Shown in pieces: positions 12,187 through 34,587 of a stretch of 52,596 nt of DNA. Position 1 is the stretch's first letter, and each line of letters opens with the position of its first letter. Origin of the DNA: a virus; IMG/VR virus record IMGVR_UViG_3300048057_000049, positions 1-52,596 of that record, one strand, 5' to 3'. The notes beneath the pieces are model-generated. The model was not told the DNA's origin. It searched no databases and saw only the letters and a list, made by a program, of their open reading frames with translations. The position numbers were made by a program, and so were the translations under genes.

Positions 12187-12235
12187 GCTCGTTTATAAAC
12201 CAATTTAAGGCTCAACATTGAGCAGGAGAAACAAC

Positions 12236-12649: not shown

Positions 12650-12679
12650 TTTTTAGCATTTTAGGCAAATAAATTTAGC

Positions 12680-12710
12680 GTACCGACCGATATGAGCAAT
12701 CGGTCGGTAC
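12680..12710 (+). terminator. intergenic hairpin after ssb, TGAGCA-loop family
   Basis: gtaccgaccgat atgagca atcggtcggtac. Confidence 0.45.
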
Positions 12711-12729
12711 ATCCATAAGGGGATTTACC

Positions 12730-13287: not shown

Positions 13288-13314
13288 CAACGGATTAAAT
13301 TAAACCAGCATTAG

Positions 13315-13339
13315 GGAGCAGGTCTAACCCACCTGCTCC
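13315..13339 (+). terminator. intergenic hairpin, GCAGGT-TAACC family
   Basis: ggagcaggt ctaaccc acctgctcc. Confidence 0.45.
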
Positions 13340-13359
13340 AAAGGATAAAGGCAACCACC

Positions 13360-13929: not shown

Positions 13930-13944
13930 AAAGGAGGTACACCC

Positions 13945-15588
13945 ATGGATTACACAGATTTGGTAAATTTAGCATTGAAGCAGTCGAGCCTGATCAGGCA
14001 CAGCGACAACGCAGGAAATAATTACGTCCAGGAGGACAGTCTGATCAACACGGTATTCGAGTTGCAAACAGAAGTCCAGCGAGCAACCCCATCCAATTAT
14101 GCAGATCTAATGACACACATAGATCACAAGAGATCGGCCAACGGATTAGGAGGCAGCTTTGAGTTTTTGCCACCCGTAGTGGACTTCATAAGACGTGGTA
14201 ACTACTTCCTCATAGTTGAGGTTCCAAACTACGAGAAAGTAACCAGCTGTATCACAGACGACCTATTGAAAAGTGTAACTACACTAAACCGCAACAGGCC
14301 GTTAGAGGAGGTAGCTGAGTACTCAATCTCGCGTCTTATTACAGACAGACTGTATCCAGGGCAGATCTACACGGGGCTAGATCAGGCGGCAAAAAACGAG
14401 ATTGAAGCACACATAACGACTTTCATGGTCTCCCATGGTTGGGAGTTTGAAAAGGTAGGTTACAACGCCTACTATCACAGAAAAGTCGAAATCAACAAAG
14501 AGAACCATCGAGTCATGGACACCAAATTCGATGGTCAGATGTATGCCGAGAAATCGTTTTTTAGTGCCGTCGCCGAAGACGCTTTTGGCAAGTTCTACTA
14601 CACAGATCTAAATGACTTCTCAGACGAATTCACGAAGTATGTCATGGAAATGGCCGATCACTATGGCTATGTCCATGATCAGGAGAGAGGTTGTTTTAAG
14701 GCCAGGCCAATAGAACTGCCAGAAAACATTGTCGAGATCGGTTACAAGATTTTGCGTAACGAAGAATATTACGAGACATCCAAGGATAACCGTCAGTGCA
14801 TCCCACTGACGACAGTGCAGGAACAGTTACGCCAGTTTTCAATACCGATACGAATTGAACAGATCAAGGAACAGCTATTAGGATCACAAGGCATATGGCG
14901 CAAGCCATTGGTAGAGTGCGGCTTTGTAGTCAGAGCAAAAGAACTCACAGAGTCTAATTACCCTAATTACAAAGCACCATCATATTGGTTCGATGCTCTA
15001 TTAAAATGGCGCAAGGTCGGCACAACACACACAGATCTCAAGGCAGAATTCGCCATGGGACTGCCCGTTCATGTAGAAAAATTCGTCCTTGAAGCCGGAT
15101 CTAGCCACTTGTTGTACATCAGCCTGGTCGGATCTAAGAACGCAGTCACGGCAAATTGGGCAGCATTGATGCAGGATCGGCAGGTGGATCTACTGTATCA
15201 ATACTTCACCGTTGGCACCGCAAAAAACCACGTGCGGTTGAACACCTACTTGCCAAGCGGTTTAGTGCAAATGATCCTGATCCACAACGACCTTCTACCA
15301 CGAAACGTTAACCCAACCAGCGAAGCAGCCTACATCATCGCCCCTGAAAATGACGATAGTATGCCCAGCGAATTCCTATCCTTACTGGACAAGATAACAG
15401 ACGTGCCAATTGTACCCGAGTGGGCCGAGTACCTTTGGATTACCGGCAGAGCTATAGGACTGATCAATTACGCGTGCACACCACACAAAATGGTAGGCTG
15501 CACCTTGTGGCGAATCACCGGTCAAAAGAAATGGCGCGAGATCATCTCCACCAGCCTCGCCGCCAAGGAAATAGCCCTTTGTACGTAA
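13945..15588 (+). CDS. large hypothetical protein (547 aa)
   Basis: SD aaaggaggt upstream. Amino-acid composition is balanced and I see no recognisable motif. Confidence 0.65.
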   Translation: MDYTDLVNLALKQSSLIRHSDNAGNNYVQEDSLINTVFELQTEVQRATPSNYADLMTHIDHKRSANGLGGSFEFLPPVVDFIRRGNYFLIVEVPNYEKVTSCITDDLLKSVTTLNRNRPLEEVAEYSISRLITDRLYPGQIYTGLDQAAKNEIEAHITTFMVSHGWEFEKVGYNAYYHRKVEINKENHRVMDTKFDGQMYAEKSFFSAVAEDAFGKFYYTDLNDFSDEFTKYVMEMADHYGYVHDQERGCFKARPIELPENIVEIGYKILRNEEYYETSKDNRQCIPLTTVQEQLRQFSIPIRIEQIKEQLLGSQGIWRKPLVECGFVVRAKELTESNYPNYKAPSYWFDALLKWRKVGTTHTDLKAEFAMGLPVHVEKFVLEAGSSHLLYISLVGSKNAVTANWAALMQDRQVDLLYQYFTVGTAKNHVRLNTYLPSGLVQMILIHNDLLPRNVNPTSEAAYIIAPENDDSMPSEFLSLLDKITDVPIVPEWAEYLWITGRAIGLINYACTPHKMVGCTLWRITGQKKWREIISTSLAAKEIALCT

Positions 15589-15980
15589 TATTCGGAACGT
15601 ACAACAAAGTTAAACAGCCGATCTACTTCACATTGGAGGAACATAATGCAGCACGTTTGGTGGACGTGCTAAATAGTTCTTCGCTCATATGGGAGCAGAT
15701 CGGCTACGACGACATAATCAGTTATAGAAAAGCTACCGGTTGGAAAGACTATCCATTTACCGTCCAGCGTGTGAGTGCTGAGGGATATGTTATCAAACCC
15801 AACTGGATAGATTTTGAAGATATGCAATATAGGAGGCAATCTAATGAGACTAGCAGGACAAGAGAAAGCGGGATTCTACCCGATCCCACAATTGATGACA
15901 GACTTGATAGCGAAAGCTATCAAGAGGCAAAAGAACGACGTATCAATGAGCGTATTAGATCCATGTTGCGGGGAAGGTGA
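15579..15980 (+). CDS. candidate small ORF overlapping both neighbouring genes
   Basis: The frame-0 ORF gives protein-like sequence (GTYNKVKQPIYFTLEEHNAARLVD...GYVIKPNWIDFED) only between 15588 and 15844. No ATG is available; the possible starts are TTG at 15579 or 15633. The stop lies 137 nt inside the next gene. Confidence 0.3.
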   Translation: MYVIFGTYNKVKQPIYFTLEEHNAARLVDVLNSSSLIWEQIGYDDIISYRKATGWKDYPFTVQRVSAEGYVIKPNWIDFEDMQYRRQSNETSRTRESGILPDPTIDDRLDSESYQEAKERRINERIRSMLRGR

Positions 15981-18900
15981 GGCTCTCACGTATCTAGCAA
16001 AAACGCTTCACATGAGGCCATACGGTAACGAGCTACACACAGAACGCGCAGCAGCAGCACGATCGGCCGTTTCGTCAATCGAAGGCTGTACCGCAGCCAA
16101 CGTGATCAACGATGACTTCATCAATATCCAAGCCAATAGAGGCTCATTCAGTCTTCTGTACCTCAACCCCCCATACGATTTTGATGCAGAACACGGCAGA
16201 GAAGAATATAGATTCCTCAAAAAGTTGCGGCCATTGCTTGCTCCAGGTGGCTTGCTAGTCTGGATCATTCCAGAGCGTATTATCGCTGACAGCAATGTGC
16301 AGCGATACATGGCCAGCTGGTTCAGGGACATGGTAGCATACCGATTCGTAGGCGATTCTTACCAAATCTACAAACAAATCGTCGTTTACGGAACTCACAA
16401 CGCCGTATCAGTAAAACCAGATCCGACTGTCATGCGAGCGATCCGCCAATTGTCGGAACTTAGCGAGAATCTACCGCAGCATCCAACATTCGATGAACCC
16501 CTATATACATTGCAGAAAGTTTCGCCTGCAAGTAAATTCTGGTTTTATGGCCTTGCGCCATCATCGGAGGCGGTTGCAGCCGAGATTAAGGATTATGGCA
16601 TACAGCAGAGCAGTGCTTTTAAGAGTTTACTCAGTCATGAGTCGCTGGTTACACTCGATCCCCTCGTACCCATGAAGGTGGGTCACGTCGCTTCTACGAT
16701 TGCTGCAGGTCATATCAACAACCAGACAATCGAAACAGAGGACGGCGGCATTGTACTTATCAAAGGCTCAGTGTACAACGAGCCAGTGACCAGAGTCACA
16801 CAGGAAGTGGCCGGAACCAAAACAAAGACGAAAAGCATCACCGTATTCGATCCAAGGTCGGTTATCACGACCGTTAACGAAAATGGCGAGATCCAAGTTT
16901 TGCAAAACGAAAAACTTGGATCATTCCTATCGAGCAATTTGGCAACGGTTACAGGCAAACTAAGGGAGTTGTACCCGCCACGCTACAACTTTACACTAGG
17001 CAAGTGGGCCAAGTACATCCGTGGAGTAAATCCAAGACGAATCCCTAACACAGATCGTAAGGGTTTGCTGCCAGCACAAAAACATTCGGCCGTAGCCATC
17101 TGTACGCAGTGGGAAACCAAACGTGAGGCCATTCTGGTTGGGCAGCTAGGCACAGGGAAGACAATCATTTCCATTGCCGCAGCATACGCCATGTACAACA
17201 AAAACAAGACGATGGATCATTTTATCGTCATGTGTCCACCGCACCTGGTTCTGAAATGGATCAGGGAGGTTGGTTTAACATGGCCGGAGGCGAAGGCGAC
17301 TGAGTTGGACTCCATCACAGAAGTGGACCGCTTCTTTGCTGAGAAGGGACCAATATTTGGTATCCTAAAATCAACAAAGGCAAGCCAAGGCTCAGGGTGG
17401 GAACATAACATCTGGTACAATGCACCAACAAGGATCGCCCGACGAACTGTCAAGGAGCCAGTCAATATCATCAGCGGCAGTAAGAAAGTGCGTAAGTTAC
17501 GCAAAATGCGCGATGGTGATGCAGGCTTTCTAAAGGCTCAAGCACAGCTACTCAAAATCCGCGTCAAATGTCCGACATGCTCGAACATCATCATACGCGA
17601 AGGTCGTAAGGACAAGGATGCTAACATGCTGGCAAGTCTAGAGGACTTCACAAACAAAAAGACCTATTGCAAAAACTGTAATGGTGCTTTGTGGCAAGAC
17701 ACAAGCAATGGTACAAAACCACGTTTCCCATTGGCAGCATATATCAACAGCCATTACAAGGGGAAGATTGACATAGCCATTGTAGATGAAGCCCACCAAT
17801 ACAAAGGGGAAGGATCTGATCGTGGAAAATCATACGCGCACATAGTCATGTCCAGTAGAAAAGTGTTAGCCATGACCGGCACCATCTATGGTGGCAAAGC
17901 AAGCACATTGTTTTTCCTTCTGTTTCGCTTGTCCCAGGACTTCAGAAAAGCATGGGTAGATATCAGCAACGCGAATCATACACGTATGATGTGGCGCGAA
18001 TGGAGCAAAACCTATGGTGTCATGGAAGAAACACTCTCCATGACTGAGGATAGCTCCAGCAAAAACAGCGGCAACCGCAGGCCAAACCGCAATGTGCGCG
18101 AAATTGCAGGATCATCTCCTGCAATGCTGCCCTGGTTGTTAAACCGTTCTGTATTCGTATCTCTTGCCGATATGGGTATGGCACTGCCAAATTATCAGGA
18201 GATCGCCGTTTCAGTTGAGATGGATAATCAAATGAAACAGCAGTACGGCATCTTGTTTGAAAGGTTATCAGACGAGCTAGGCAAACGACTAATCAAGGGA
18301 GACCGCTCCCTGTTAGCTAAATACCTATATGCCTTACTTTACTGGCCGGACTCCCCTTGGAGACCGAAGATAGTCAAGGAGGAAGGCAAAGCCGCGCCAT
18401 TGGTAGCAATACCAGGAACCGGACAGCCGTTAGGCGTAGCGCCAAAGGAGGCCAAGATCCTAGAGTTAATTCAGGAGGAATTAGCCGCAGATCGAAAGTG
18501 CCTACTTATGGTAGCGCAATCCAACACATTGGATATCCAACCACAGTGGAAAGAGTTCCTTGCGTTCAACAACATCTCTTCAGAAATCCTGCGCGAAGAT
18601 CCATACAAACGTGAAGCATGGATCAAAAAGCAGGAGAAGCGGGGAACTCAAGTGCTTATCTCCAACCCCAAAAAAGTTGAAACGGGATTAGATATCCTTG
18701 GCTATCCAACCATCATTTGGATGTCTCCAGACTTTTCGATCTACACGGTCATGCAAGCATCCGGCAGAGCCTTTCGTCTTGGCCAGACGAAAGACTGCAA
18801 AGTCTATCACTTCGCTTATGCAGAAACGCTGCAAGACCAGGCTTTGCGCCTGGTGATCGCCAAAGCAGCAGCAGCCAAGCGAGTCAATGGAGACACAATC

Positions 18901-19455
18901 GACAGTGACGATCTGGCCGATCTAGACGGACTAGCAGCGGATTCCATCGAGAACGCATTAGCAAAAACGATCATGGAAAACTCTTCAAGCAGAACATTGT
19001 TAAATGAGATCGCCCTAGAGTTTGAGCAGGCCCAAAAGGATATTTACGAAGGTCGCTTCGCTGAGTGCGTAACACTCGAAGAAGCGGAGGAAATATACAA
19101 AGAGTTGACCACTGAAAATAATCCACAGGCTGTTAAAACCCTTGCTGATTTCATGGCGATAGCAAATGAAGAGTTCAAAACGGAGGAAAACTATCTGGAT
19201 GGATCGTCAATACAAAACGACGAAGATCCGGAGTTCGTGATAGAATCAGAACCCGAGCCGGAGATATTTACGCCAGTAGCGTCGGAAACCGTCAAGATCG
19301 TTGACGAAGAACAACAGCCGGAACCTGCTCCAATCGTCACAGTGGAGCCAGTCCAAACTCGCCTGGTATTCGGGAAGGCCACGATCAAAGTAACCGGCAG
19401 CCGCAAGCGCAGCAAGCAGGAGGCGACAAAAGTAGTTCAGTTGTCGTTATTCTAA
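15844..19455 (+). CDS. fusion of an N-terminal SAM-dependent DNA methyltransferase (DUF6094-like) with an SNF2/DEAD-like helicase carrying a Zn-ribbon insert
   Basis: Starts MRLAGQEKAGFYPIP after the strong SD aggagg. Methyltransferase motifs LDPCCGEGEA and LYLNPPYD. Helicase motifs GTGKT, IVDEAHQYKG and QASGRAFRLGQTK. Zn-ribbon CPTC...CKNC. Confidence 0.8.
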   Translation: MRLAGQEKAGFYPIPQLMTDLIAKAIKRQKNDVSMSVLDPCCGEGEALTYLAKTLHMRPYGNELHTERAAAARSAVSSIEGCTAANVINDDFINIQANRGSFSLLYLNPPYDFDAEHGREEYRFLKKLRPLLAPGGLLVWIIPERIIADSNVQRYMASWFRDMVAYRFVGDSYQIYKQIVVYGTHNAVSVKPDPTVMRAIRQLSELSENLPQHPTFDEPLYTLQKVSPASKFWFYGLAPSSEAVAAEIKDYGIQQSSAFKSLLSHESLVTLDPLVPMKVGHVASTIAAGHINNQTIETEDGGIVLIKGSVYNEPVTRVTQEVAGTKTKTKSITVFDPRSVITTVNENGEIQVLQNEKLGSFLSSNLATVTGKLRELYPPRYNFTLGKWAKYIRGVNPRRIPNTDRKGLLPAQKHSAVAICTQWETKREAILVGQLGTGKTIISIAAAYAMYNKNKTMDHFIVMCPPHLVLKWIREVGLTWPEAKATELDSITEVDRFFAEKGPIFGILKSTKASQGSGWEHNIWYNAPTRIARRTVKEPVNIISGSKKVRKLRKMRDGDAGFLKAQAQLLKIRVKCPTCSNIIIREGRKDKDANMLASLEDFTNKKTYCKNCNGALWQDTSNGTKPRFPLAAYINSHYKGKIDIAIVDEAHQYKGEGSDRGKSYAHIVMSSRKVLAMTGTIYGGKASTLFFLLFRLSQDFRKAWVDISNANHTRMMWREWSKTYGVMEETLSMTEDSSSKNSGNRRPNRNVREIAGSSPAMLPWLLNRSVFVSLADMGMALPNYQEIAVSVEMDNQMKQQYGILFERLSDELGKRLIKGDRSLLAKYLYALLYWPDSPWRPKIVKEEGKAAPLVAIPGTGQPLGVAPKEAKILELIQEELAADRKCLLMVAQSNTLDIQPQWKEFLAFNNISSEILREDPYKREAWIKKQEKRGTQVLISNPKKVETGLDILGYPTIIWMSPDFSIYTVMQASGRAFRLGQTKDCKVYHFAYAETLQDQALRLVIAKAAAAKRVNGDTIDSDDLADLDGLAADSIENALAKTIMENSSSRTLLNEIALEFEQAQKDIYEGRFAECVTLEEAEEIYKELTTENNPQAVKTLADFMAIANEEFKTEENYLDGSSIQNDEDPEFVIESEPEPEIFTPVASETVKIVDEEQQPEPAPIVTVEPVQTRLVFGKATIKVTGSRKRSKQEATKVVQLSLF

Positions 19456-19691
19456 TGATTGAGTATCGTATAAACAGTAGCAGCCTGGTGTCAGCAAAAG
19501 CATTGCTAGCACTAGGCAAAGAAATATATGCTAAATCGGGGCTTGTTAACGCTTACGAGGTAGTGTATACTATGTTTATTGATGTCTCCAAACAAACAGT
19601 GGAGGCTATTCTAAAGGGAGAACACAAGGTGTATGAACACGAACGTGGCATCTGGTTTTTCCTAGACGAAAGCGAGGTCAATCATGAATGA
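19455..19691 (+). CDS. hypothetical protein
   Basis: 78-aa ORF whose ATG overlaps the upstream stop. Confidence 0.5.
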   Translation: MIEYRINSSSLVSAKALLALGKEIYAKSGLVNAYEVVYTMFIDVSKQTVEAILKGEHKVYEHERGIWFFLDESEVNHE

Positions 19692-19965
19692 AAAGGAATT
19701 AGAAATCCGTATAGAATCAAACGATTCCTTCCATGTACCTGCAGGATTAATACAAGCGAGATGGATCGCAAGACACGACTTCAAAGAGGCCCTTCACCTA
19801 CTAAACAGCATGTTCGATGGTTTAGTCAAGGTAGACGGTCTCATGAAGATCTTGAGAGGCAACATAGAACCGGTTTTTAACCTAGAAGATCTGACTACAA
19901 ATAGTCTGACATTCAGACTAATGGAAAGTCAGATCAACATGGAATTGTTACACCTTGAAGAATAA
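19684..19965 (+). CDS. hypothetical protein
   Basis: 93-aa ORF with an 8-nt overlap on the upstream gene. Followed by a hairpin at 19976-20007. Confidence 0.5.
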   Translation: MNEKELEIRIESNDSFHVPAGLIQARWIARHDFKEALHLLNSMFDGLVKVDGLMKILRGNIEPVFNLEDLTTNSLTFRLMESQINMELLHLEE

Positions 19966-19975
19966 ACACACATAG

Positions 19976-20007
19976 GTAATGGCCGGCTTGAGCAAGTCGG
20001 CCATTAC
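19976..20007 (+). terminator. intergenic hairpin, TGAGCA-loop family
   Basis: gtaatggccg gcttgagcaagt cggccattac. Confidence 0.45.
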
Positions 20008-20026
20008 ACATTACAAAGGGGACATC

Positions 20027-20428
20027 ATGATCAATCCAAAATCTATACTCTTCTATCTGATCGCAATTGTAGCGATCGTTTTAGCGTCCTGTACTACGTC
20101 ATCTTGTCCAGAACAAGATGACCAAGTAGTCAACGAACATCGAATCAAGGTAAGCACAGCGACATACAGGGATTACTCGTTGGGAAAACTGCCCGTGGAG
20201 AGCGCCACAGCAACGGCCGGTCTCATGTATTTCAAGGCAAAAGACGAAGCAGGATGCAGCCATCTCAGCGAAACAGAAACATTATTGGTGCTGGAGGTTC
20301 TGCACAACAACTGGAAGGCAATTGAAGCCAAAGAAATGCTGGCAGATGCGGCCGTAGTAAATAGTTTTATTGAAAAGTCATACCACGCCCAACATGCATT
20401 GGAAATGACACACAATTGGGATCTATAA
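20027..20428 (+). CDS. putative lipoprotein
   Basis: ATG at 20027 after aaagggga. Signal peptide with a lipobox-like IVLASC. The track start at 19979 lies inside the upstream hairpin. Confidence 0.55.
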   Translation: MINPKSILFYLIAIVAIVLASCTTSSCPEQDDQVVNEHRIKVSTATYRDYSLGKLPVESATATAGLMYFKAKDEAGCSHLSETETLLVLEVLHNNWKAIEAKEMLADAAVVNSFIEKSYHAQHALEMTHNWDL

Positions 20429-20438
20429 GGAGATACAA

Positions 20439-20786
20439 ATGAGCAAAGGAAATAGCGAGATGACCAAATATCCAGAAACGATTCATGAAACACATGACAG
20501 CTGGGGCGACAAGAATTATTACTATAATGAAAAGCGGTTTGACGAGGAAATTTCCATTTTACAAGAGCTAGGTGACGATTGGGCAGACATCGGCAATGTT
20601 GATTGCAACACCTACTCATTCCAAAAAGAGGTAAATGGGAAAGCGATTTATCGACAGAATGGTATTCGCCGTGACTGGTATGTTATTTTCAAACGCGCCA
20701 TCGGCAATAATAGCGAGGGTATGTTTATTTTTGTGGAAGATTCTTTTCACAGCATAGAGGATGCAGAAGAATATATAGCAGGATAA
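20439..20786 (+). CDS. hypothetical protein
   Basis: 115-aa ORF with SD taaggaga upstream. Confidence 0.55.
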   Translation: MSKGNSEMTKYPETIHETHDSWGDKNYYYNEKRFDEEISILQELGDDWADIGNVDCNTYSFQKEVNGKAIYRQNGIRRDWYVIFKRAIGNNSEGMFIFVEDSFHSIEDAEEYIAG

Positions 20787-20854
20787 CGAAGCTTACGCAA
20801 CCTATGATGATAACAGCCCCGCCGGTGGCATCGTAACCGGCAAAGGAAAATGAC

Positions 20855-21076
20855 ATGACGACATTATCAGCAGAGCAAACAAGCGCATTATCATTAGCAG
20901 TCAGCCTCATTTTAGATGCTGCGAAAGAAGCTGGCCCATTGGGTGCACCAAGCGGTATTGTTTACGCCGCACTTAGCGCCCACGGAATGACCCTTCTTTC
21001 TTACCAGTCAATTATTAACGCACTAACCAGAGCGAGCAAAATCACAGTTAAGAATAATTGCATCATTTTAGTTTAA
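20855..21076 (+). CDS. hypothetical protein
   Basis: 73 aa. Preceded by the conserved stem-loop plus aaaggaaaa. Confidence 0.5.
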   Translation: MTTLSAEQTSALSLAVSLILDAAKEAGPLGAPSGIVYAALSAHGMTLLSYQSIINALTRASKITVKNNCIILV

Positions 21077-21154
21077 CCTAACAGCCCCGCCGGTGGCTCA
21101 TAACCGGCAACTACTTTGTATAGATGGGATTTAGCAATTAGTCAAGGAGATGAG

Positions 21155-21307
21155 ATGACGATATTAGACAAGTTTATGGGAAAGACAATGAAGGTTGGTT
21201 CACCTGAGTATGTCGCATGGCTTAAAGCGGCGTCCGATGAGGCGTGGCGAGAAGAGATAGTAGCACAAATTGAGGAATACAACGCCAATAACGACAAGGA
21301 GAAATGA
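21155..21307 (+). CDS. small hypothetical protein (50 aa)
   Basis: ATG at 21155 with aaggaga 7 nt upstream. The track start at 21116 is unsupported. Confidence 0.4.
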   Translation: MTILDKFMGKTMKVGSPEYVAWLKAASDEAWREEIVAQIEEYNANNDKEK

Positions 21308-21344
21308 AATGACACACAATTGGGATCTATAAGGAGATTCAAAA

Positions 21345-21641
21345 ATGTACAACAATAATCCAGTAGGCCATAAACTAGAATCAGAGCAGGAAATAATCGA
21401 ACACCTGAACACATACGTAGGCGAACTAAAATATTCAGTGATTGACGATGAATATGGCCGATGTGTACTTGAAGCCTCTTTAACGAAGCGAAATGAAAAC
21501 CCCGATTTTTCAGAATTTGATTATTCAATTTGGAGCGACCGTATAATTGGCGGCTGTCTGCGCTACAATGACAGCGCTGAGGGTTTAGCCTACTACATGA
21601 TAAATTCGCAAGCCCGAGTTCATTGGACAATTAACGCATAG
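21345..21641 (+). CDS. hypothetical protein
   Basis: 98 aa with SD taaggaga upstream. Confidence 0.5.
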   Translation: MYNNNPVGHKLESEQEIIEHLNTYVGELKYSVIDDEYGRCVLEASLTKRNENPDFSEFDYSIWSDRIIGGCLRYNDSAEGLAYYMINSQARVHWTINA

Positions 21642-21693
21642 GATAACACCATTAACAGCCCCGCCGGTGGCTAATAACCGGCAAAGGAAAATC

Positions 21694-21906
21694 ATGTTCA
21701 AAAAAAATAATGCATCAACAAGCCTGAAGAAAGCGGCATATCGTCAAGGTGCGCGCGGCAACTGGAAATGGGAACATCGAAACGCACGAACTGCCGATGA
21801 AACCCTTGCCATCGTCATAGATAGCAAAGGTAGAGAATTCAAAATCACCTCATATGAACTTGACTGGGTTGGCGATTTAACCTGGCCAGAAGTCAAGGAA
21901 ATGTAA
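21694..21906 (+). CDS. small basic hypothetical protein (paralog of 11694..11912)
   Basis: ATG at 21694 after the stem-loop plus aaaggaaaa. The track start at 21667 (GTG) lies in the hairpin. Confidence 0.55.
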   Translation: MFKKNNASTSLKKAAYRQGARGNWKWEHRNARTADETLAIVIDSKGREFKITSYELDWVGDLTWPEVKEM

Positions 21907-21985
21907 GACTAATTTTACAACAGCCCCGCCGGTGGCTAATAACCGGCAAATAGTTGAGAACAGCAACACACAAGGAGACAGGACG

Positions 21986-22135
21986 ATGACAAAATATTAC
22001 GGCCCAACACATCACAAATTTTCAACCGAACTAATTGCATATTCATTTTTCATGAAGGCAAAATACACATACGGGGATATTCAAGCCCCTCAATTAATCA
22101 ATGGGTTTTGGGTAGTAATCACATACCCAAAATAA
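21986..22135 (+). CDS. small hypothetical protein (49 aa)
   Basis: ATG at 21986 after the shared leader ...aacagcaacacacaaggagac. Confidence 0.45.
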   Translation: MTKYYGPTHHKFSTELIAYSFFMKAKYTYGDIQAPQLINGFWVVITYPK

Positions 22136-22205
22136 ATATCTAACAGCCCCGCCGGTGGCTAATAACCGGCAAATGGTTAAGAACAGCAACACACAAGGAG
22201 ACGAC

Positions 22206-22445
22206 ATGACAATCAAATGGGAATCAGGAGAATCGGGATACAAAACAAAAAAGTTTGGCGGGTTTATGACTGATGAAGTTCAGGGAGTTGTCCATTATTT
22301 TTCCGATGAAAACAAATGGAGTGGGGGAATCATTAATTGGGATAATGAGCAGTTGAGTAAATTCCGCTATGATTTTGAGAGTAAGCGAGCTGCTATTAAA
22401 TGGACTAATCAGCAATTACGCGGAAGTGGAATCAGTTTAGTTTAA
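22206..22445 (+). CDS. hypothetical protein
   Basis: ATG at 22206 after the shared leader with aaggaga. Confidence 0.5.
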   Translation: MTIKWESGESGYKTKKFGGFMTDEVQGVVHYFSDENKWSGGIINWDNEQLSKFRYDFESKRAAIKWTNQQLRGSGISLV

Positions 22446-22512
22446 CCTAACAGCCCCGCCGGTGGCTAATAACCGGCAAATGGTTAAGAACAGCAACACA
22501 CAAGGAGACGAC

Positions 22513-22746
22513 ATGACAAACCAAGAGATTATCGGAACAGTCAAAACATTAAGACAAATCTACGAATCAGACATTACGCCGAAAAATTGCAAAATGTGGT
22601 ATTACGTACAATCTCACAAAGAATGGGAACGAGTCAATTATATTAACGGCTACGATGTTAATACTCAAAGCAACAAACTGAGCGGTGATTTTGGAAAACG
22701 CACCTGGATGCTTCACCCAAACTGCACCGTACTAATAGAGGCATAA
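22513..22746 (+). CDS. hypothetical protein
   Basis: ATG at 22513 after a leader identical to that of 22206. Confidence 0.5.
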   Translation: MTNQEIIGTVKTLRQIYESDITPKNCKMWYYVQSHKEWERVNYINGYDVNTQSNKLSGDFGKRTWMLHPNCTVLIEA

Positions 22747-22792
22747 CCCCCAAGCCCCGCCAGTGGCTCATAACCGGCAAAGGAGTAGTCAG

Positions 22793-23035
22793 ATGAACAA
22801 AGAATTTCAGAACCAAGTATTAGGAATGTTGTTAGGACTGGCAGAAGCCTGGGGCAAAAAACAAGACGAATGGACTCCAGACCAAACCCACCGAATTCGC
22901 GAATTATACCTACTACTGGAAACGCCATTTGTCGTGGCCATTTTCAACAGCGGCTTTACAAGCACGCAGGAATTTTTAACAGAGATTGGCACAGGATTGT
23001 ACCCCGATCTTCAACATAACGAATACTTGAGATAA
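22793..23035 (+). CDS. hypothetical protein
   Basis: ATG at 22793 after a degenerate stem-loop plus aaaggag. Confidence 0.5.
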   Translation: MNKEFQNQVLGMLLGLAEAWGKKQDEWTPDQTHRIRELYLLLETPFVVAIFNSGFTSTQEFLTEIGTGLYPDLQHNEYLR

Positions 23036-23055
23036 CATTCATTAAATTAAGTATA

Positions 23056-23079
23056 GGGGCAGGTTTAACCACCTGCCCC
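23056..23079 (+). terminator. intergenic hairpin, GCAGGT-TAACC family
   Basis: ggggcaggt ttaacc acctgcccc. Confidence 0.45.
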
Positions 23080-23097
23080 AAAAGAGAGTGAATAACC

Positions 23098-23256
23098 ATG
23101 AACAACCTAAACGAAGAAGAAGCAAAAAAACTCAAAGAAAAGATGCTCCGCGCAGGAACGCGAGTAGCACTAACATCAAACGAAAAGCAATTCATACTTG
23201 AAGCAGCAGAAGAAGTCGTGGCCGCAAAGGAAGGTAAACAACCATGGCAACACTAA
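23098..23256 (+). CDS. small hypothetical ORF (52 aa, below the track cutoff)
   Basis: ATG at 23098 (MNNLNEEEAKKLKEKMLRAG...). Overlaps the next start by 13 nt. The antisense ORF 22956..23195 is judged spurious. Confidence 0.35.
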   Translation: MNNLNEEEAKKLKEKMLRAGTRVALTSNEKQFILEAAEEVVAAKEGKQPWQH

Positions 23257-23477
23257 ACAATTGGTTAAAAATCAAAGAGCACAGGCGCAAAGTAGAAAAA
23301 GATTGGCCCAAGTGGACAATGCTTTACACCGACAGTCTGGGTAGAAAATGTCGCCGCACCATCAAGGCACCGACAATCCGTAAAGCAATGCAAAAAATCG
23401 GAGTCAGTACATCGCAACTCCACACACACGGCAGAGTAGCGCCAGGCCGAGAAGATCCGGAAGATCTCACGATCTAG
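23244..23477 (+). CDS. hypothetical protein
   Basis: 77-aa basic ORF followed by a hairpin at 23484-23529. Confidence 0.45.
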   Translation: MATLNNWLKIKEHRRKVEKDWPKWTMLYTDSLGRKCRRTIKAPTIRKAMQKIGVSTSQLHTHGRVAPGREDPEDLTI

Positions 23478-23483
23478 TCAATA

Positions 23484-23529
23484 CCCCACCCTTTCGCATA
23501 GTCCTTATACGCTGCACGTAAGGGTGGGG
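23484..23529 (+). terminator. intergenic hairpin
   Basis: ccccaccctt ... aagggtgggg, a 10-bp stem with a 26-nt loop. Confidence 0.35.
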
Positions 23530-23545
23530 AACTGAGCAATTAATA

Positions 23546-24616
23546 ATGAAAAAAGACAGCGACATAACACCTACAATTCCCCCCTCAGCGCACACGTCCC
23601 CTCACATCCCCCCACGTGCTGACGCACAAACCGGCACATCCTCACCCACAACGGCTGAGGATCAGCCACCAACACACGTGCTTCCCCCAGCTGGAACATC
23701 CCCCAACGAAACGGCCGTTCAGGAGGCAACCGCCCTTATGGAAGCACTGGCCGGCACATCCTCACCCACAGAGAACGTGTCCCCCCCCACTCCGCACATG
23801 CAGGCGCATACCAACACGGCCGTTGATCAACCAGAGAATCGGCAACAAGACGAGACCACCTTAGAGTGGTTCGCCAGGTCATTGGCTAAACCAAAGGAAG
23901 AGGATATGTCCGAGATGATACGCTGGACACAGCAGCGTATTATCAAAGAGCAGATGGTTGAATACCATGCTAGATGGATTGAAAAGACGATCCCCATGCT
24001 AAAACGCCTGGACAACGTGCCACACGTGCATGACCGCATCCTGATGAAGCGTACCATTCTGCTTATCGTCACGGCCGATTACCTAGCCGAGACCAGACAG
24101 AGCGTGTTCGACATGGATGTCACAGCCAACAGGCAAGCATGGACGCGGTGGATGAAACGGCCGGAGATCCGAGCAGTCTACGATGACATCTTTAGTGCCA
24201 TGGAATCCGAAGTGCTGAACCATGAGCTATCTGCTATTCGTGCAGCTACCCGAACTACACGTGTGTCAGCAGCCCGAGCAGCCGAAGTTCGAGCATCCTT
24301 GCTAGAGCACGATAACCCATGGGTACAGTTGACCGCTGCGCGTGATGTATTGCAGTCTGCGTCATCTGATACGGCTAGTAAACAGTCTATTCGTGTACAG
24401 GCTGCTTTGTCAGAAGGACAGGTAGAAGAACTGCTCGCACGTGCTAACGCAGAACTGACCAAGTGGAGCCAGCTACCCCCATTGACAGATAGCAATGATA
24501 GACAGTCTATCGTCGTGGTTGACATGCCAACCAAACAAGCCACCATAGAGGGTGATGACCCACCCGTTGAGGGACGCACCGGCCAGTCTAAGCATGGGCC
24601 AGCAGACCAGGAATAG
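23546..24616 (+). CDS. hypothetical protein with a Pro/Thr/Ser-rich repetitive N-terminus and a helical C-terminal domain
   Basis: 356 aa. AGTSSPT occurs twice. It is the last gene before the 1-kb non-coding block. Confidence 0.55.
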   Translation: MKKDSDITPTIPPSAHTSPHIPPRADAQTGTSSPTTAEDQPPTHVLPPAGTSPNETAVQEATALMEALAGTSSPTENVSPPTPHMQAHTNTAVDQPENRQQDETTLEWFARSLAKPKEEDMSEMIRWTQQRIIKEQMVEYHARWIEKTIPMLKRLDNVPHVHDRILMKRTILLIVTADYLAETRQSVFDMDVTANRQAWTRWMKRPEIRAVYDDIFSAMESEVLNHELSAIRAATRTTRVSAARAAEVRASLLEHDNPWVQLTAARDVLQSASSDTASKQSIRVQAALSEGQVEELLARANAELTKWSQLPPLTDSNDRQSIVVVDMPTKQATIEGDDPPVEGRTGQSKHGPADQE

Positions 24617-24624
24617 ACGGCCGT

Positions 24625-24863
24625 GTTCTCCATTGAGAACAAACAATATAAATACTCGATAGTCTTAACACGTAAGTGGTAAGACTATCGAGTATAAGAG
24701 GACTATACCCACACGGCCGTATCGTACGTACGGCCGTGTGGGTATAGGGGGTGCATGTGTGGGTCAGGAAGGTTGGATCACATGCACGTTTAACTATACC
24801 GATAGGTATAGTTAAACAAAAAAAGATGGTACCAAAGAGGTGGCCGGCCGGAGTGCTGGCCAC
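24625..24863. other. cluster of six consecutive hairpins / palindromes
   Basis: Stems at 24625-24640 (6 bp), 24652-24695 (16 bp), 24703-24747 (19 bp), 24751-24787 (9 bp), 24788-24817 (13 bp) and 24840-24863 (6 bp). Confidence 0.85.
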
Positions 24864-25253
24864 ACACGACTTGTCGTGGTTAGAGAGGTCAGCGCAAATT
24901 TTCGGCAGGGATCCCCATTGCAAAATCCATCTTTTTGGAACATCAACCAACATAGGGAAGATACTTAAAAATAAGGGAAGGGGCGGCACAACTATAATTT
25001 TTCTGGCATACCCTGGAAGTTTAAAAAAAGTCCTCTACTATTAGTTGTTATGCTTGTTTTGACAATCGCCAAGTAATAAACGAAGAGACCAAAAACGACG
25101 TGGTTGTCCATATACATTTGTATTGTTTTGCTTGTTTTAGTTGTTTTGCCCCAATGCTACGCAAGCAAAACAAGCAATTCAGAAGGGCATTGACATTGAA
25201 TAGAATTACGACCACGTTGGAGGGAAACAGGGGCCTTCACAATGGTACATATG

Positions 25254-25319
25254 GTAACTTGTAGTTACCATAGTAGTAACTTGTAGTTACCATAGTAGTA
25301 ACTTGTAGTTACCATAGTA
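25254..25319. repeat. 22-bp tandem repeat x3 (gtaacttgtagttaccatagta), each unit containing the inverted repeat gtaac-ttgta-gttac
   Basis: Exact copies at 25254, 25276 and 25298. Confidence 0.95.
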
Positions 25320-25398
25320 GTTTGTTATCAAATAATAGCATCTCCATAACCCAGGAGAAAGCAGGTAAAGCTAGGAGCCTCACGAAACGGCCGAAATA

Positions 25399-25500
25399 TA
25401 TGTCGGTTTTAAGTCTTTATGTCGGTTTTAAGTCTTTATGTCGGTTTTAAGTCTTTATGTCGGTTTTAAGTCTTTATGTCGGTTTTAAGTCTTTATGTCG
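25399..25500. repeat. 19-bp tandem repeat x5.4 (tatgtcggttttaagtctt)
   Basis: Exact copies at 25399, 25418, 25437, 25456 and 25475, plus a partial copy at 25494. Confidence 0.95.
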
Positions 25501-25555
25501 CGACGTCTCATGGATACATTGCACACAAATACGGCCGAGTAAAGCAAAGAGGGCC

Positions 25556-25584
25556 TTGATCAATACGGGACAGTAAGATACAAT
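25556..25584 (+). promoter_or_regulatory. sigma70-like promoter candidate (TTGATC, 17-nt spacer, TACAAT) upstream of 25632
   Basis: -35 at 25556-25561 and -10 at 25579-25584, about 55 nt downstream of the 19-bp iterons. Confidence 0.45.
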
Positions 25585-25631
25585 ATAGAGAGAGCAGCAA
25601 AAAAGCATAATTTTAGTAAAGGGGAAATCAA

Positions 25632-26156
25632 ATGATAACAAAAAAGCGAATATTATTAATCGGATTGACTGCAGCATTTATTCTAGCGGTAGCTTTGATC
25701 ATGAAGGTAAATGCGGAAGCAGAAACCATCGGCGATGTCTATATAATCGGGATGCAAGGAAAGCACCGCGAAGACGAGAACGGAAACCTACAAAACGCCA
25801 CATTATATTTTGTAATGGGGCTTCCGCATGACAATGAAAAGTGCAAGCAAGGCAGAGCGCAAGCAGTAGTCAGCATCCGACATTGGCCGAAATGGGGAAC
25901 CGAGATAGCCAGGAATGACGAGGTTTGCGGTCCAGTCGATCTAAGGGCGATGAAAGGGTTTGCCACAATTTTAATGTGGTCTTTGAGATCGGAGGAGCGC
26001 AATTTATCTCCTGATCCATTAGGGAAATATGTTAACTGGCAAGAGGTCATTCGTATATCGCAAGAGGAGATCCTGTATTTCAGGCGAGATGTGGCACCGG
26101 CCTACCAAGGCCGAGGTTATTGGGGAGTGTATACTCCATTGATAAAGAGGAGGTAA
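25632..26156 (+). CDS. exported hypothetical protein (paralog of 12730..13287)
   Basis: SD aaagggga upstream. Signal sequence ending KVNA-EA. Shared motifs ETIGDVYI, VCGPVDLRAM and PDPLGKYVNWQE. Confidence 0.6.
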   Translation: MITKKRILLIGLTAAFILAVALIMKVNAEAETIGDVYIIGMQGKHREDENGNLQNATLYFVMGLPHDNEKCKQGRAQAVVSIRHWPKWGTEIARNDEVCGPVDLRAMKGFATILMWSLRSEERNLSPDPLGKYVNWQEVIRISQEEILYFRRDVAPAYQGRGYWGVYTPLIKRR

Positions 26157-28021: not shown

Positions 28022-28737
28022 AAAACAACCACAAGCAAATTATACCCATAATTGGCATAGCGATAATCATGCTCAGTATAACTGCCCTTGCTTGGCTAAC
28101 GTCAACAGCACAAAACAAAGCAGCGGCATATACAACGACTTGCGATCTAGATGATACGGATTGTCTGGACGCTTTTAGCCAGCTGGCACTTAGCCTCGCG
28201 GCAGATGAAGAGCATGTCTACCTGCCAATCATCAGGGGCGAGGTAATGGGGCCACCCTATTTACCAACAGCCAGTCCAGTGCCACCAACACAGACGGCCG
28301 TTGTTATCACAGGCGAACCGCCACCAACCATAATTGTCACTGAGATTGTGACCGTGACTCAAGAAGTTACTCCACCACCAACCATAATTGTCACTGAGAT
28401 TGTGACCGTGACTCAAGTAGTTACACCAACGCCAACGAACACACCAACAAACACGGCAACGTCTACACCTACATTTACACCGACAAACACAGCAACGCCG
28501 TGGCCTGGAAACACGTGGACACCAATTCCACCAACCGCGACAAACACGCCAACGCCAGAACCATGGAATACGTGGACACCGACACCAACCGAAACGGCCG
28601 TACCTACGTTTACGCCAACGATTGAACCATGGAACACGTGGACACCAATTCCACCAACCGCGACAAACACGCCAACGCCAGAACCATGGAATACGTGGAC
28701 ACCGACACCAACCGAAACGGCGACGACGATACCATAG
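28018..28737 (+). CDS. membrane-anchored Pro/Thr-rich repeat protein
   Basis: N-terminal TM segment IIPIIGIAIIMLSITALAWL, then an 18-aa repeat x2 and a 30-aa repeat x2. The antisense ORFs are repeat artefacts. Confidence 0.55.
   Translation: MKNNHKQIIPIIGIAIIMLSITALAWLTSTAQNKAAAYTTTCDLDDTDCLDAFSQLALSLAADEEHVYLPIIRGEVMGPPYLPTASPVPPTQTAVVITGEPPPTIIVTEIVTVTQEVTPPPTIIVTEIVTVTQVVTPTPTNTPTNTATSTPTFTPTNTATPWPGNTWTPIPPTATNTPTPEPWNTWTPTPTETAVPTFTPTIEPWNTWTPIPPTATNTPTPEPWNTWTPTPTETATTIP
28321..28428 (+). repeat. 54-bp coding tandem repeat x2 (PPPTIIVTEIVTVTQEVT)
   Basis: Near-identical copies at 28321 and 28375. Confidence 0.9.
28510..28722 (+). repeat. 90-bp coding repeat x2 at 123-bp spacing (NTWTPIPPTATNTPTPEPWNTWTPTPTETA)
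   Basis: Copies at 28510-28599 and 28633-28722. Confidence 0.9.
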
Positions 28738-30150: not shown

Positions 30151-30184
30151 GGGATATTCGGATATTCGGATATTCGGGATATCC
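30151..30184. repeat. 8-bp tandem repeat GGATATTC x3 ending in the palindrome GGATATCC, in the non-coding gap upstream of the terminase block
   Basis: gggatattcggatattcggatattcgggatatcc. Confidence 0.9.
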
Positions 30185-30206
30185 AAGAGAGAAAGGAGAA
30201 AACAGC

Positions 30207-30407: not shown

Positions 30408-30445
30408 GGACAACCTAAAGACTTATATGCTATACTGTATAAGTC

Positions 30446-31918
30446 ATGAGTGACCAGAACAACAAAAGACCTATAATAGACGACGATAAAGACGAACAAG
30501 CAATAGAACTAACTAAATGCGCGTTAAATCCAGGCTACTTCATAGATACCTACTTACAGATTGACGATCCCAACAAACCAGGTAGCGACTGGTTTCCATT
30601 CAAATTATGGCCTGCACAACGAGAAGCAATAAAAGTTATAGCTGAGAACGACAAGACGATCATACTGAAGGCACGACAATTAGGATTGAGTTGGCTCACA
30701 TTGGGCTACGCTTTACACATGATGGTATTCAAGCCAGGAAGCGTAGTCCTTTTGTTTTCCAAGACACGTGGCGATGCTAGAGAACTAATGCGCCGACTAC
30801 AGGGAATGTGGGACCGGCTTCCCAATTGGCTAAGACCGGATGTAGAGAAATCGCTAGAAGAGAGCTTGTCGTTAGCAAACAAGAGCAGAGCCAAGAGTTT
30901 CGCCACAACAAAACACAGCGGCCGCAGTTTCACGGCGTCATTAGTCATCATAGACGAGGCTGCATTTATTGATTTCCTAGATCAATTGCTAGTAGCCGCA
31001 GTAGCCACGGCGGACGCTGGAGGTCGCGTTATTGTCATCTCCACCAACGACAAGGAAAAGCCAAACAACGGTTTTGCAAAACTATACAAACGCGCAGCAA
31101 AAGGCATGAGCGAGTTTATAGCGTTGTTCATTCCCTGGTACGGCCGTCCAAGCCGCACAAATGAGTGGTACACAAACAAAATAAACACACAAGAGCAAGA
31201 CGATCTCTGGCAAGAATATCCCGAAGTGCCAGAACAGGCACTCGCCGGCCGGAGCAGCACCAAACGGTTTAAGCAAGAATGGATCAAGGCTTGCACACGA
31301 AATGACGATAGGCTAACGAAATATGGCAAGATCGGACTACCGAACATACCAGGCATAGCCTATTACCAACAGCCACAGTTAAACCGAGAGTATTTATTGA
31401 TCATAGATCCGGCTGAGGGAGATACTACGTCAGACTTCACAGCCATGACCTTATGGGACGCACTTTTGTGGGAAGAGGTCGCGTTCGCCATGGGCAAATG
31501 GGAGCCAAGCACCACAGCCAGTTACGCATGGCGCATAGCGAGTGTATACAACGACGCGACAATCTGTCCCGAGCGAAACAACCACGGTCATAGCGTGATC
31601 CTTGCCCTAGGCGAGATATACAGGTACAAATGGATCTACAAGAGCCCTTTTGACAAGAAGCAAGGTTGGCTCACAACCATGCGTACAAAGACATTGGCGA
31701 TAGACAAATTAGCCGAGCTAATGCAAGAGGGGGAAATAGGGATCAGAACAAAGATCACCTTAGCACAACTAGCCAACATAGAGGCCGGAACACAAACAGC
31801 ACCGGAAGGCGATTACGACGACGCGGCCATGACTGCGATCATAGCGGCAGGTGCCTTAACATGGACGACAATTAAAAAGCGGCAGAGAAGGCAGCGATTA
31901 GTCAGCATAAGCATGTAG
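30446..31918 (+). CDS. terL: terminase large subunit
   Basis: The segment KLWPAQREAIKVI...IILKARQLGLSWL and the acidic IIDEAAFI are typical of the TerL ATPase. The nuclease half contains DPAEGD. 490 aa, followed by the portal gene. Confidence 0.85.
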   Translation: MSDQNNKRPIIDDDKDEQAIELTKCALNPGYFIDTYLQIDDPNKPGSDWFPFKLWPAQREAIKVIAENDKTIILKARQLGLSWLTLGYALHMMVFKPGSVVLLFSKTRGDARELMRRLQGMWDRLPNWLRPDVEKSLEESLSLANKSRAKSFATTKHSGRSFTASLVIIDEAAFIDFLDQLLVAAVATADAGGRVIVISTNDKEKPNNGFAKLYKRAAKGMSEFIALFIPWYGRPSRTNEWYTNKINTQEQDDLWQEYPEVPEQALAGRSSTKRFKQEWIKACTRNDDRLTKYGKIGLPNIPGIAYYQQPQLNREYLLIIDPAEGDTTSDFTAMTLWDALLWEEVAFAMGKWEPSTTASYAWRIASVYNDATICPERNNHGHSVILALGEIYRYKWIYKSPFDKKQGWLTTMRTKTLAIDKLAELMQEGEIGIRTKITLAQLANIEAGTQTAPEGDYDDAAMTAIIAAGALTWTTIKKRQRRQRLVSISM

Positions 31919-33878: not shown

Positions 33879-34168
33879 TCCCAATCGGTTGCATGATAAT
33901 TCTGTATGGTCTTGCGGCGAGCATGTGCTTTTATGCAGCATCACTGGTCAGAAAGCGCCACATAACCAGTATGATGTGGGCCATGTTGGGATTAGGTTTC
34001 GGTGCATCTGCAGGCGTAATATTTTTTGTAACCGTAGCCGCTACTGATATCGAACTTTATCCAACACTCGCCATCTCGATAGCGAGATGGCGAGACACAA
34101 TAAGTGGAGTAGCGTTACTAGGTGCAAGCATTACAGTATATCTGGAGTTTAGAGGCAGAGATAACTAA
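33875..34168 (+). CDS. small membrane protein
   Basis: 97 aa with about 3 hydrophobic helices. ATGA overlap with the upstream gene. Confidence 0.5.
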   Translation: MIPIGCMIILYGLAASMCFYAASLVRKRHITSMMWAMLGLGFGASAGVIFFVTVAATDIELYPTLAISIARWRDTISGVALLGASITVYLEFRGRDN

Positions 34169-34526: not shown

Positions 34527-34551
34527 CCTTAATAAGCGGATAGTCTATTAT
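34523..34551 (+). promoter_or_regulatory. sigma70-like promoter candidate (TTGACC, 17-nt spacer, TATTAT) upstream of the scaffold/capsid genes; overlaps the hairpin at 34543-34570
   Basis: -35 at 34523-34528 and -10 at 34546-34551. The 9-bp stem is gtctattat / ataatagac. Confidence 0.35.
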
Positions 34552-34587
34552 GAAGTACAGAATAATAGACGTGTATAAGGGGTAAAT

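Follow-up and report, generated by a model that had tools for sequence, protein, structure and literature searches.

The window, i.e. the whole stretch of 52,596 nucleotides analysed here, carries an array of seven consecutive hairpins (24624-24878) that is a real, conserved and previously unannotated functional non-coding element. The array lies at the junction of the replication/early genes and the packaging/structural genes, and it is linked to terS, the probable gene of the small terminase subunit, as a new form of the non-coding, repeat-rich regions found with terminase genes. Our preferred reading, to which we give a probability of roughly 40 %, is that the array forms the upstream half of a terS-linked non-coding region of about 1 kb (24617-25631) containing a candidate cos/pac site. 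We infer this packaging function, as well as the level (DNA or RNA) at which the palindromes act.

The assembly of the window is circular, one and the same 69-nt repeat array being found at its two ends. A leftward module (1752-7709) encodes DnaB and DNA methylases, and a long rightward run (8091-24616) includes a SNF2-helicase/methyltransferase fusion. The gene of the large terminase subunit, TerL, is found at 30446-31918, followed by portal, head and tail genes. This TerL is of the T4/Terminase_6N type and shares less than 30 % identity with that of any cultured phage. Searched at the DNA level, 50,697 phage records contained no match to the region.

The hairpins are perfect except for one G.T pair in H6 and are arranged as follows:

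24624-24641, no strand assigned: H1, a 7-bp hairpin (TGTTCTC catt GAGAACA)
24652-24695, no strand assigned: H2, a perfect 16-bp stem with 31 % GC plus a 3-bp inner stem; this slot is the nested hairpin 'Hb' of the relatives
24703-24747, no strand assigned: H3, a perfect 19-bp stem with ACGGCCGT in both arms
24751-24787, no strand assigned: H4, a stem of 9 bp and a loop of 19 nt; stems of the GCATGTGC type are found in relatives, too
24788-24817, no strand assigned: H5, an AT-rich perfect 13-bp hairpin with a 4-nt loop
24818-24839, + strand: A/G-rich spacer with AAAAAAAGATGGTACCAAAGAG, of the TAAGATACAGATA type in relatives
24840-24863, no strand assigned: H6, a GC-rich 9-bp hairpin (GTGGCCGGC/GCTGGCCAC) with one G.T pair and the conserved loop CGGAGT
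24865-24878, no strand assigned: H7, CACGA-CTTG-TCGTG, i.e. 5 bp and a 4-nt loop

A sequence-only reading of the window had listed six back-to-back stems at this place. All six were recovered at their coordinates, H3, H4 and H5 exactly as described, while H1 (7 bp), H2 (with its 3-bp inner extension) and H6 (9 bp) turned out to be longer than given and H7 had been overlooked. Its description of almost no unpaired spacer was roughly right, with gaps of 10, 7, 3, 0, 22 and 1 nt, and its remark that no U-tract follows any of the stems applies to all hairpins. Its argument that the hairpin density exceeds the needs of a terminator holds as well. What it missed, besides H7, was a conserved sequence block 3' of the hairpins and two perfect tandem repeats (22 nt x3 and 19 nt x5.4), to which we return below. 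The two CGGCCG sites that it noted in H3 do exist, as does the GGCCGGCC in H6, but CGGCCG is a word of the whole genome, where it is around 9-fold enriched (68 sites vs 7.5 expected). The same holds for ACGGCCGT, with 22 sites genome-wide against an expected 0.39. Since both are enriched throughout the genome, neither is a property of the array locus.

The hairpin cluster is far beyond chance. Folding of the region, which the same reading had proposed as a check, gave RNA z-scores of -12.7 (+ strand) and -15.6 (- strand) and a z-score of -14.0 for the array folded as DNA, with none of 200 shuffles equally stable. No 250-nt window elsewhere in the 52.6-kb genome is as stable as the array (-128 kcal/mol): the mean over the genome's 250-nt windows is -59.7 kcal/mol (sd 12.1), and the next best one elsewhere reaches -92 kcal/mol. 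Among short-range inverted repeats, three of the top twelve in the window belong to the array, including the two longest.

The gene directly upstream had been called the last early gene. While the array does lie directly 3' of it, this gene is probably terS instead:

23546-24616, + strand: 356-aa protein, probable TerS, based on the position of remote homologs

Residues 1-100 of this protein are disordered and P/T/S-rich, followed by a helical core at around 105-310. It had no match in Pfam, PHROG or NCBIfam, nor to a PDB sequence profile; its AF2 model is helical and of low confidence (pLDDT 51), and Foldseek returned nothing significant with this model. An exhaustive profile search, on the other hand, found 26 homologs. 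The remote ones, of 170-260 aa, align with the conserved core (profile positions ~147-330), and in four of the five with genomic context the gene is located directly upstream of TerL or overlaps it. In these four cases (P0019, P0011, P0010 and P0014; loci L258, L259, L262 and L266 on four unrelated phage contigs), TerL is adjacent and portal- and capsid-sized genes follow. Directly upstream of the large-terminase gene is the canonical place of the small terminase subunit. Judged by this gene position in remote homologs, rather than by biochemistry, the 356-aa protein is probably TerS. The remote TerS-family loci that were checked for hairpin arrays had none, i.e. TerS proteins of this family do not need an array in general.

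Five further lineages, i.e. L004-L008, L009, L010, L011/L012 and L013/L014, encode a TerS with 41-52 % identity to that of the window. The hairpin array adjoins terS in all six lineages (window included) and is located upstream of TerL, at a distance of 0.3-7 kb. It follows the terS stop codon in the window, L004 and L009 and precedes terS in L010, L011/L012 and L013/L014, with its own orientation identical in every lineage. The shared order thus reads: SNF2 helicase and small genes, array and terS in either order, 0-5 kb of non-conserved genes, TerL, portal. L009 shows the order terS, block and TerL with no gene between, while an HNH endonuclease gene is found inside the block in L010 and L012, and L012 additionally carries Dam methylases between terS and TerL. 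Viral contigs scanned with exact words and with single proteins gave no match, and a TerL-based search yielded no contigs beyond the known relatives. A pattern of CGGCCGGAGT-N28-46-RAKGTC was discarded as too loose, since all of its 240 loci in the viral and genome collections were chance matches, L088 among them being coding sequence.

Across lineages, the array comprises 7-10 hairpins with stems of up to 19-20 bp, and its size ranges from ~260 nt in the window up to ~650 nt in L012/L014. The order of its parts is kept: the nested hairpin (H2/Hb), a CA-rich run, the ACGGCCG-stem (H3), the GCATGTGC-type hairpin (H4), the AT-rich perfect hairpin (H5), the A/G-rich spacer, the GC-rich hairpin with the CGGAGT loop (H6), the small hairpin (H7) and, finally, the words TAAGAGAGGTCA, GGGAYYCCC-TTG(C/A)AAAATCC and CTTGGAAYAGG. 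The ACGGCCG-stem slot is preceded by the CA-rich run in all lineages. In the relatives, H5 has 12-14 bp, is perfect or near-perfect with a GC content of 14-43 % and a loop of 3-4 nt, and is unrelated in sequence. H6 has 78-89 % GC wherever it is a simple hairpin; in L010 its place is taken by a three-way junction, the closing stem of which has 57 % GC. Hairpin interiors vary freely in length between lineages.

The sequence-only reading had proposed a test for covariation in homologous contigs, and the array passes it. Pairing was seen in 90 % of the cells of the gap-free H6/H7 columns (alignment A3), compared to 26-49 % when partner columns are slid, and 10 of the 15 pairs, including all six in H7, have changed on both sides, a value matched by none of 500 shuffles. 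H5 was left out of register by MAFFT because its stem sequences are unrelated, and the slots were therefore tabulated by script. Two nearly identical genomes, L011 and L012, are set apart in H5 by a double change, G-C to A-T, that is cleanly compensatory. On these comparisons of sequences, it is the structure that is selected and not the stem sequence.

The hairpins open a non-coding gap of 1,015 nt (24617-25631), in which the following elements were identified further downstream:

24880-24948, + strand: conserved primary-sequence block, found by eye and by regex in the window, L004, L009, L010, L012 and L014
24880-24891: TTAGAGAGGTCA, a word of the conserved block
24908-24928: GGGATCCCC-ATTGCAAAATCC, words of the conserved block
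about 24932-24942: block B, TTTTTGGAACA, which reads CTTGGAAYAGG in relatives
25123-25177, no strand assigned: TTGTTTTGC x3 and an inverted partner, lineage-specific
25254-25321, no strand assigned: perfect tandem repeat of 22 nt x3.1, GTAACTTGTAGTTACCATAGTA, with an internal 6-bp dyad, found at no other locus
25399-25500, no strand assigned: perfect tandem repeat of 19 nt x5.4, TATGTCGGTTTTAAGTCTT
25556-25584, + strand: sigma70-like promoter TTGATC-17-TACAAT, before the RBS AAAGGGGAAAT and the gene 25632-26156

The conserved words form what could be expected of a common core: CGGCCGGAGT occurs in the window as well as in L004, L009 and L011-L014, and GAGAGGTCA, GGGAYYCCC-TTG(C/A)AAAATCC and CTTGGAAYAGG are likewise common across lineages. 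An equivalent promoter and RBS are found before the next gene in the relatives. The downstream tandem repeats, in turn, differ in every lineage and are absent from L012/L014, and the 19-nt repeat has one extra unit in an otherwise identical JGI contig. Two other readings of the conserved stretch were rejected, i.e. a small ORF running across H6 to block B, given that lineages differ in the spacing of the conserved words by numbers that are not multiples of 3, and sigma70, sigma54 or ECF promoters made up of blocks A and B, whose spacings do not fit by eye.

The sequence-only reading had named a structured RNA, a cruciform-forming DNA locus serving replication, packaging or recombination, and a transcription barrier, and had made no choice among them; it is supported in part. 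Packaging is favoured here, with the probable terS adjacent and co-travelling, a replication origin is disfavoured, as discussed below, and the array may have a role as structured RNA or boundary on the + strand. The link to packaging is drawn from the constant adjacency to terS despite rearrangement, the conserved core, the position at the head of the packaging module and the precedent of the cos site in 936-type phages. Such a cassette is what one would expect of a recognition site and the protein that binds it, and a conserved block directly after the hairpins is as expected for a protein-binding or cutting core. The region of about 1 kb is inherited together with terS in this phage group, and we propose that it serves packaging recognition (cos or pac) and that its core, i.e. 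the H6 loop CGGAGT, H7, GAGAGGTCA and GGGATCCCC-TTGCAAAATCC, would be bound or cut by terminase. The upstream palindromes would then provide a structural DNA flank, either cruciform-prone or easily melted, in which the GC content of each slot is kept. Since it is transcribed from the + strand, the array would also fold in the incoming mRNA, where it may mark the end of the upstream message without classical termination.

Two independent partial contigs (L011 and L013) start no more than ~20 nt from the homologous left edge of the block, which is compatible with a physical genome end or with a coverage/assembly break; in the latter case, strain variation or poor sequencing through the palindromes could be the cause. 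Large terminase subunits of the T4/Terminase_6N type are often headful and may need little or no site, which argues against a packaging site. Moreover, cos and pac sites are not known to contain 7-10 long perfect hairpins, and the circular assembly of the window, its ends overlapping in a repeat, shows neither a cos nor a pac site; we hold to the packaging reading tentatively. Elsewhere in the window, a cluster of GGATATTC/GGATATCC at 30152-30186, just upstream of TerL, is another candidate terminase site. Clusters of the CGGAWWTCCG type were dismissed as a terminase site, being absent from L012/L014.

In a strand-neutral search, ~97 % of the stem pairs were Watson-Crick (318, with 8 G.T and 3 A.C), in agreement with a manual slot table (309 Watson-Crick, 5 G.T and 3 mismatches). 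The 8 vs 3 excess of G.T over A.C leans towards the + strand and is not significant, and neither strand has a consistent advantage in MFE. Such near-pure Watson-Crick, strand-neutral stems suggest that the palindromes are maintained at the DNA level. The linkers point the other way: 257 A vs 89 T were counted among the unpaired array bases on the + strand over all six lineages, i.e. an A/(A+T) of 0.74 vs a background of 0.59-0.62, with T-depletion in every lineage. In addition, this genome sets single perfect hairpins of 9-12 bp without a T-run between stop codon and next RBS at many + strand junctions. Taken together, the A-rich, T-poor linkers and the junction hairpins speak for the importance of the + strand transcript and favour a role at the RNA level. 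They further suggest that T-runs behind hairpins are avoided rather than merely absent, and with them intrinsic termination. An intrinsic terminator itself was not found: on the + strand, fewer than five T are found among the 10 nt that follow each array hairpin, and a terminator scan detected no + strand terminator at the array, although its position would suit one, 8 nt past the stop of 23546-24616 and ahead of the sigma70-like promoter at 25556. The array may be purely RNA-level punctuation, i.e. a stack of hairpins that blocks 3'-to-5' exonucleases or is cut by RNase III and thereby separates and stabilises early and late mRNAs, with no intrinsic termination involved. This, the main rival of the packaging reading, we consider somewhat unlikely. 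It would account for an array start that is always just past the stop codon of a + strand gene, in a single orientation, for the want of + strand terminator-like sites found in 8-24.7 kb and for the promoter that restarts transcription downstream. The nested stem/symmetric internal loop/stem seen in L004, L010 and L012-L014 also fits, such shapes resembling T7 RNase III sites; helix lengths are compatible with the interrupted helix of about 20 bp of such sites as well, but the stems are perfect palindromes and not strand-specific. G.U makes up only ~2.5 % of the stem pairs, one or two hairpins would suffice for stabilisation, and punctuation leaves unexplained why the array stays adjacent to terS under changes of gene order, why conserved sequence follows it and why H5 is constantly AT-rich and H6 GC-rich. 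That the array encodes a new large structured ncRNA, for instance one associated with packaging or directed against host defence, seems improbable to us. The multi-helix architecture conserved with covariation, the conserved hexaloop and single-stranded segments, the three-way junction that replaces H6 in L010, the A-rich unpaired + strand positions and the extreme z-scores would all suit such an RNA. It is at odds with near-perfect palindromes that fold equally on either strand, with a build of simple tandem hairpins that lack long-range or tertiary pairing and vary freely in interior length, and with the failure to find a dedicated promoter or terminator. Furthermore, Rfam 15 (including GOLLD and ROOL) gave no match at gathering thresholds over the whole window, permissive Rfam scans of the window and the L014 blocks returned nothing but sub-threshold miRNA-precursor noise, and a tRNA/tmRNA search found none. 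A CsrA sponge was dismissed, with only 2-3 GGA motifs in loops.

The tandem repeats bring a replication origin to mind, or a secondary/lagging-strand origin, in which they would act as iterons and the palindromes would assist unwinding or priming. The perfect 19-nt and 22-nt units are about as long as iterons and differ in copy number between contigs that are otherwise identical, and some siphophage origins are non-coding regions with several inverted and direct repeats. Nevertheless, we regard an origin at this place as very improbable. While the hairpins are universal, these repeats are specific to lineages and missing in L012/L014; the block contains no DnaA boxes and no AT-rich unwinding element, 24-25 kb being, at 50.7 % GC, the highest 1-kb bin; the cumulative GC skew has its minimum near 17 kb and does not switch at 24.6 kb. 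A better ori candidate, together with the DnaB gene, is located at 5304-7709, where 18-nt DnaA-box-like iterons, (TA)8 and AACGACAA x3 lie within the gene upstream of dnaB in a lambda-like layout. Extremely unlikely is a DNA element similar to the injection-stop region (iss) of T5, which would pause or stage genome entry or act on translocation at portal or tail. The architecture is parallel, as the region is large and untranslated, with ordered palindromes and direct repeats whose order is kept among relatives, and with HNH insertions in L010 and L012. On the other hand, no TTWTNCACA DnaA box was found in the block, no T5-like A1, A2 or dmp genes were recognised among the ORFs searched, and no terminal repeat was recognised at the array locus. 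An integron attC reading of H5, whose GTTTAAC...GTTAAAC fits R''/R', was rejected as well, the hairpin being too short and too perfect and not conserved in sequence, with no integrase found. It is also tempting to speculate that the array RNA belongs to a new 'hairpin-array' class, acting with terminase or portal as a pRNA-like cofactor or serving as an anti-defence decoy, or else that cruciforms are read by the motor, though we would put little weight on this. If true, such an RNA class or cruciform start/stop signal would mean a packaging signal defined by shape and not by sequence.

Returning to the packaging reading, what sets this element apart is that a terS-adjacent non-coding region keeps the order, length and composition of its hairpins while their sequence is replaced. 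Should it prove to serve as a packaging signal, it would offer an example from nature of DNA recognised by its shape, i.e. by cruciforms or easily melted palindromes. If it acts as RNA, this phage group would punctuate long transcripts with perfect hairpins lacking a U-tract and would place an extreme version of them at the early/late junction. Either way, what is known of an uncultured phage group is extended by a conserved element and a probable TerS family, both without previous annotation.

Among known systems, the cos region of lactococcal 936-type phages is located between the middle and late genes, with inverted repeats, direct repeats and binding sites of the terminase on its flanks; in these phages, terS and terL are often separated by an inserted HNH or methyltransferase gene (PMC6105707). 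The region described here resembles the 936-type (Skunavirus) cos, and similar cos/pac regions of siphophages, in being non-coding, at the middle/late boundary and beside the terminase genes, with inverted and direct repeats and a conserved core. The 936 cos, however, has one 10-bp inverted-repeat pair around an 11-nt cohesive end, whereas here 7-10 long perfect hairpins stand in tandem, and their sequences turn over completely between lineages while order and composition persist. The injection-stop region of T5 measures 1.2-1.7 kb, is untranslated and is packed with ordered palindromes and tandem direct repeats; an HNH endonuclease gene interrupts it in some relatives (bioRxiv 10.1101/866236). 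Shared features are thus palindromes followed by arrays of direct repeats, an order that is kept despite differing flanking genes, and HNH genes inserted in some members. In contrast to the array, the T5 sequences are highly conserved, carry 8 ordered DnaA boxes and lie in the terminal repeat near the end that is injected first, while our region is not conserved in sequence, has no DnaA boxes and is linked to terS.

The intercistronic RNase III hairpins of T7 lack a U-tract, too, and are conserved in structure above sequence. As in T7, hairpins without a U-tract lie between cistrons, and several slots of our arrays show the form 'stem, internal loop, stem'; yet the T7 sites are single, imperfect and strand-specific, whereas the hairpins described here are clustered, almost purely Watson-Crick and fold on both strands. 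The intergenic region of the filamentous (Ff) phages comprises about five back-to-back hairpins in ~500 nt, including the packaging signal, and is similar in placing such a row of hairpins in a non-coding region. Ff phages, however, have ssDNA with the hairpins in the virion strand, while the array belongs to a tailed dsDNA phage of 52 kb that encodes TerL, portal and DnaB.

Across the window as a whole there are 68 copies of the palindrome CGGCCG, where about 7.5 would be expected, and ACGGCCGT reaches 22 copies against 0.39 expected. The sites, e.g. at positions 1287, 4239, 12605, 23711, 24617, 24713 and 24730, carry an A at -1 in 48 of the 68 cases and a T at +1 in 36, and the palindrome is also seen in the non-coding blocks (the terS-linked regions with the hairpin array) of the relatives. 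In this respect CGGCCG behaves like a highly iterated palindrome of the HIP1 style; HIP1 proper (GCGATCGC) has a single occurrence in the window. Several other 6 bp palindromes are strongly avoided, i.e. TTCGAA, GGGCCC, GAGCTC, CTCGAG, CCGCGG, CCCGGG and AGGCCT each have zero copies in the whole window and TGCGCA has one versus 14.9 expected, a depletion that fits avoidance of restriction sites. The phage also has at least three DNA methyltransferases of its own:

3819-4664, DNA methyltransferase
4645-5268, DNA methyltransferase
15814-19455, product with an N-terminal DNA methyltransferase

Long in-frame tandem repeats and non-coding or A-rich arrays are likewise present:

1-634 and 52306-52596, 45335-45677 and 28317-28703, repeats or arrays
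9127-9373, non-coding or A-rich array of 50 nt x5 with CGGCCG
8762-8977, non-coding or A-rich array of 119 nt x1.8

The gene spanning the window ends contains an in-frame repeat of 69 nt (23 aa) in about eight copies, and the 1451-aa tail-fibre-like gene one of 114 nt in three. That both ends share repeats indicates that the assembly is circular or that its termini overlap. A perfect 19 nt tandem repeat at 25399-25500 has 5.4 units versus 6.4 in the JGI contig L001, the two sequences being otherwise identical over the whole aligned 1.1 kb region.

A replication origin with a lambda-like element order is likely in the gene preceding the DnaB helicase gene, and a sigma70 promoter is also present:

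7299-7408, candidate origin, located within the minus-strand ORF 6708-7709 and closely upstream of dnaB (5304-6701)
7931-7959, consensus sigma70 promoter (TTGACA-17-TATAAT)

The candidate comprises 2.9 copies of GTTATCCAARATAGATG, an 18 nt DnaA-box-like iteron, followed by (TA)8 and then three copies of AACGACAA, all of these lying within the ORF that precedes dnaB.

At many plus-strand junctions the stop codon is followed by a perfect 9-12 bp hairpin and then an AAGGGG-type RBS, without a T-run (11961-11986, 12680-12710, 13315-13339, 19976-20007, 23056-23079, 34067-34094 and 34543-34570). The hairpin family GGAGCAGGT...ACCTGCTCC recurs at 13315 and in two related contigs (L012 2426; L014 1618 and 2992), and the hairpin at 23056 is similar to it. 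The sole terminator-like hairpin lies at the convergent junction 1584-1618.

Ahead of TerL, the large terminase gene, all lineages share the extended -10 element ATATG(G/C)TATACT:

window 30424-30448
L255 ~8086-8107
L012 ~10886-10907
L009 ~1751-1771

As only 9-12 nt separate this element from the TerL ATG, the arrangement implies a dedicated promoter and a near-leaderless terL mRNA. A family of short palindromic or tandem motifs, in the forms GGATATTC x3 plus GGATATCC, CGGAATTCCG and CGGGATATCCCG, forms clusters that in some lineages lie near or within the non-coding terS/TerL regions (window 30152-30186; L004 4452-4490; L009 1624-1652; L010 1252-1335) and that are absent from L012 and L014. 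These clusters may be binding sites for a regulator or the terminase.

Two relatives carry an HNH endonuclease gene inside the non-coding block, in opposite orientation:

L012 4960-5712, minus strand
L010 ~1400-2280, minus strand

The L012 copy has a duplicated ATCCCCCTCCCCTAGCA word on its flanks. The gene has the look of an inserted free-standing homing endonuclease and parallels the HNH insertion by which the injection-stop-signal-type repeat regions of phage T5 are split.
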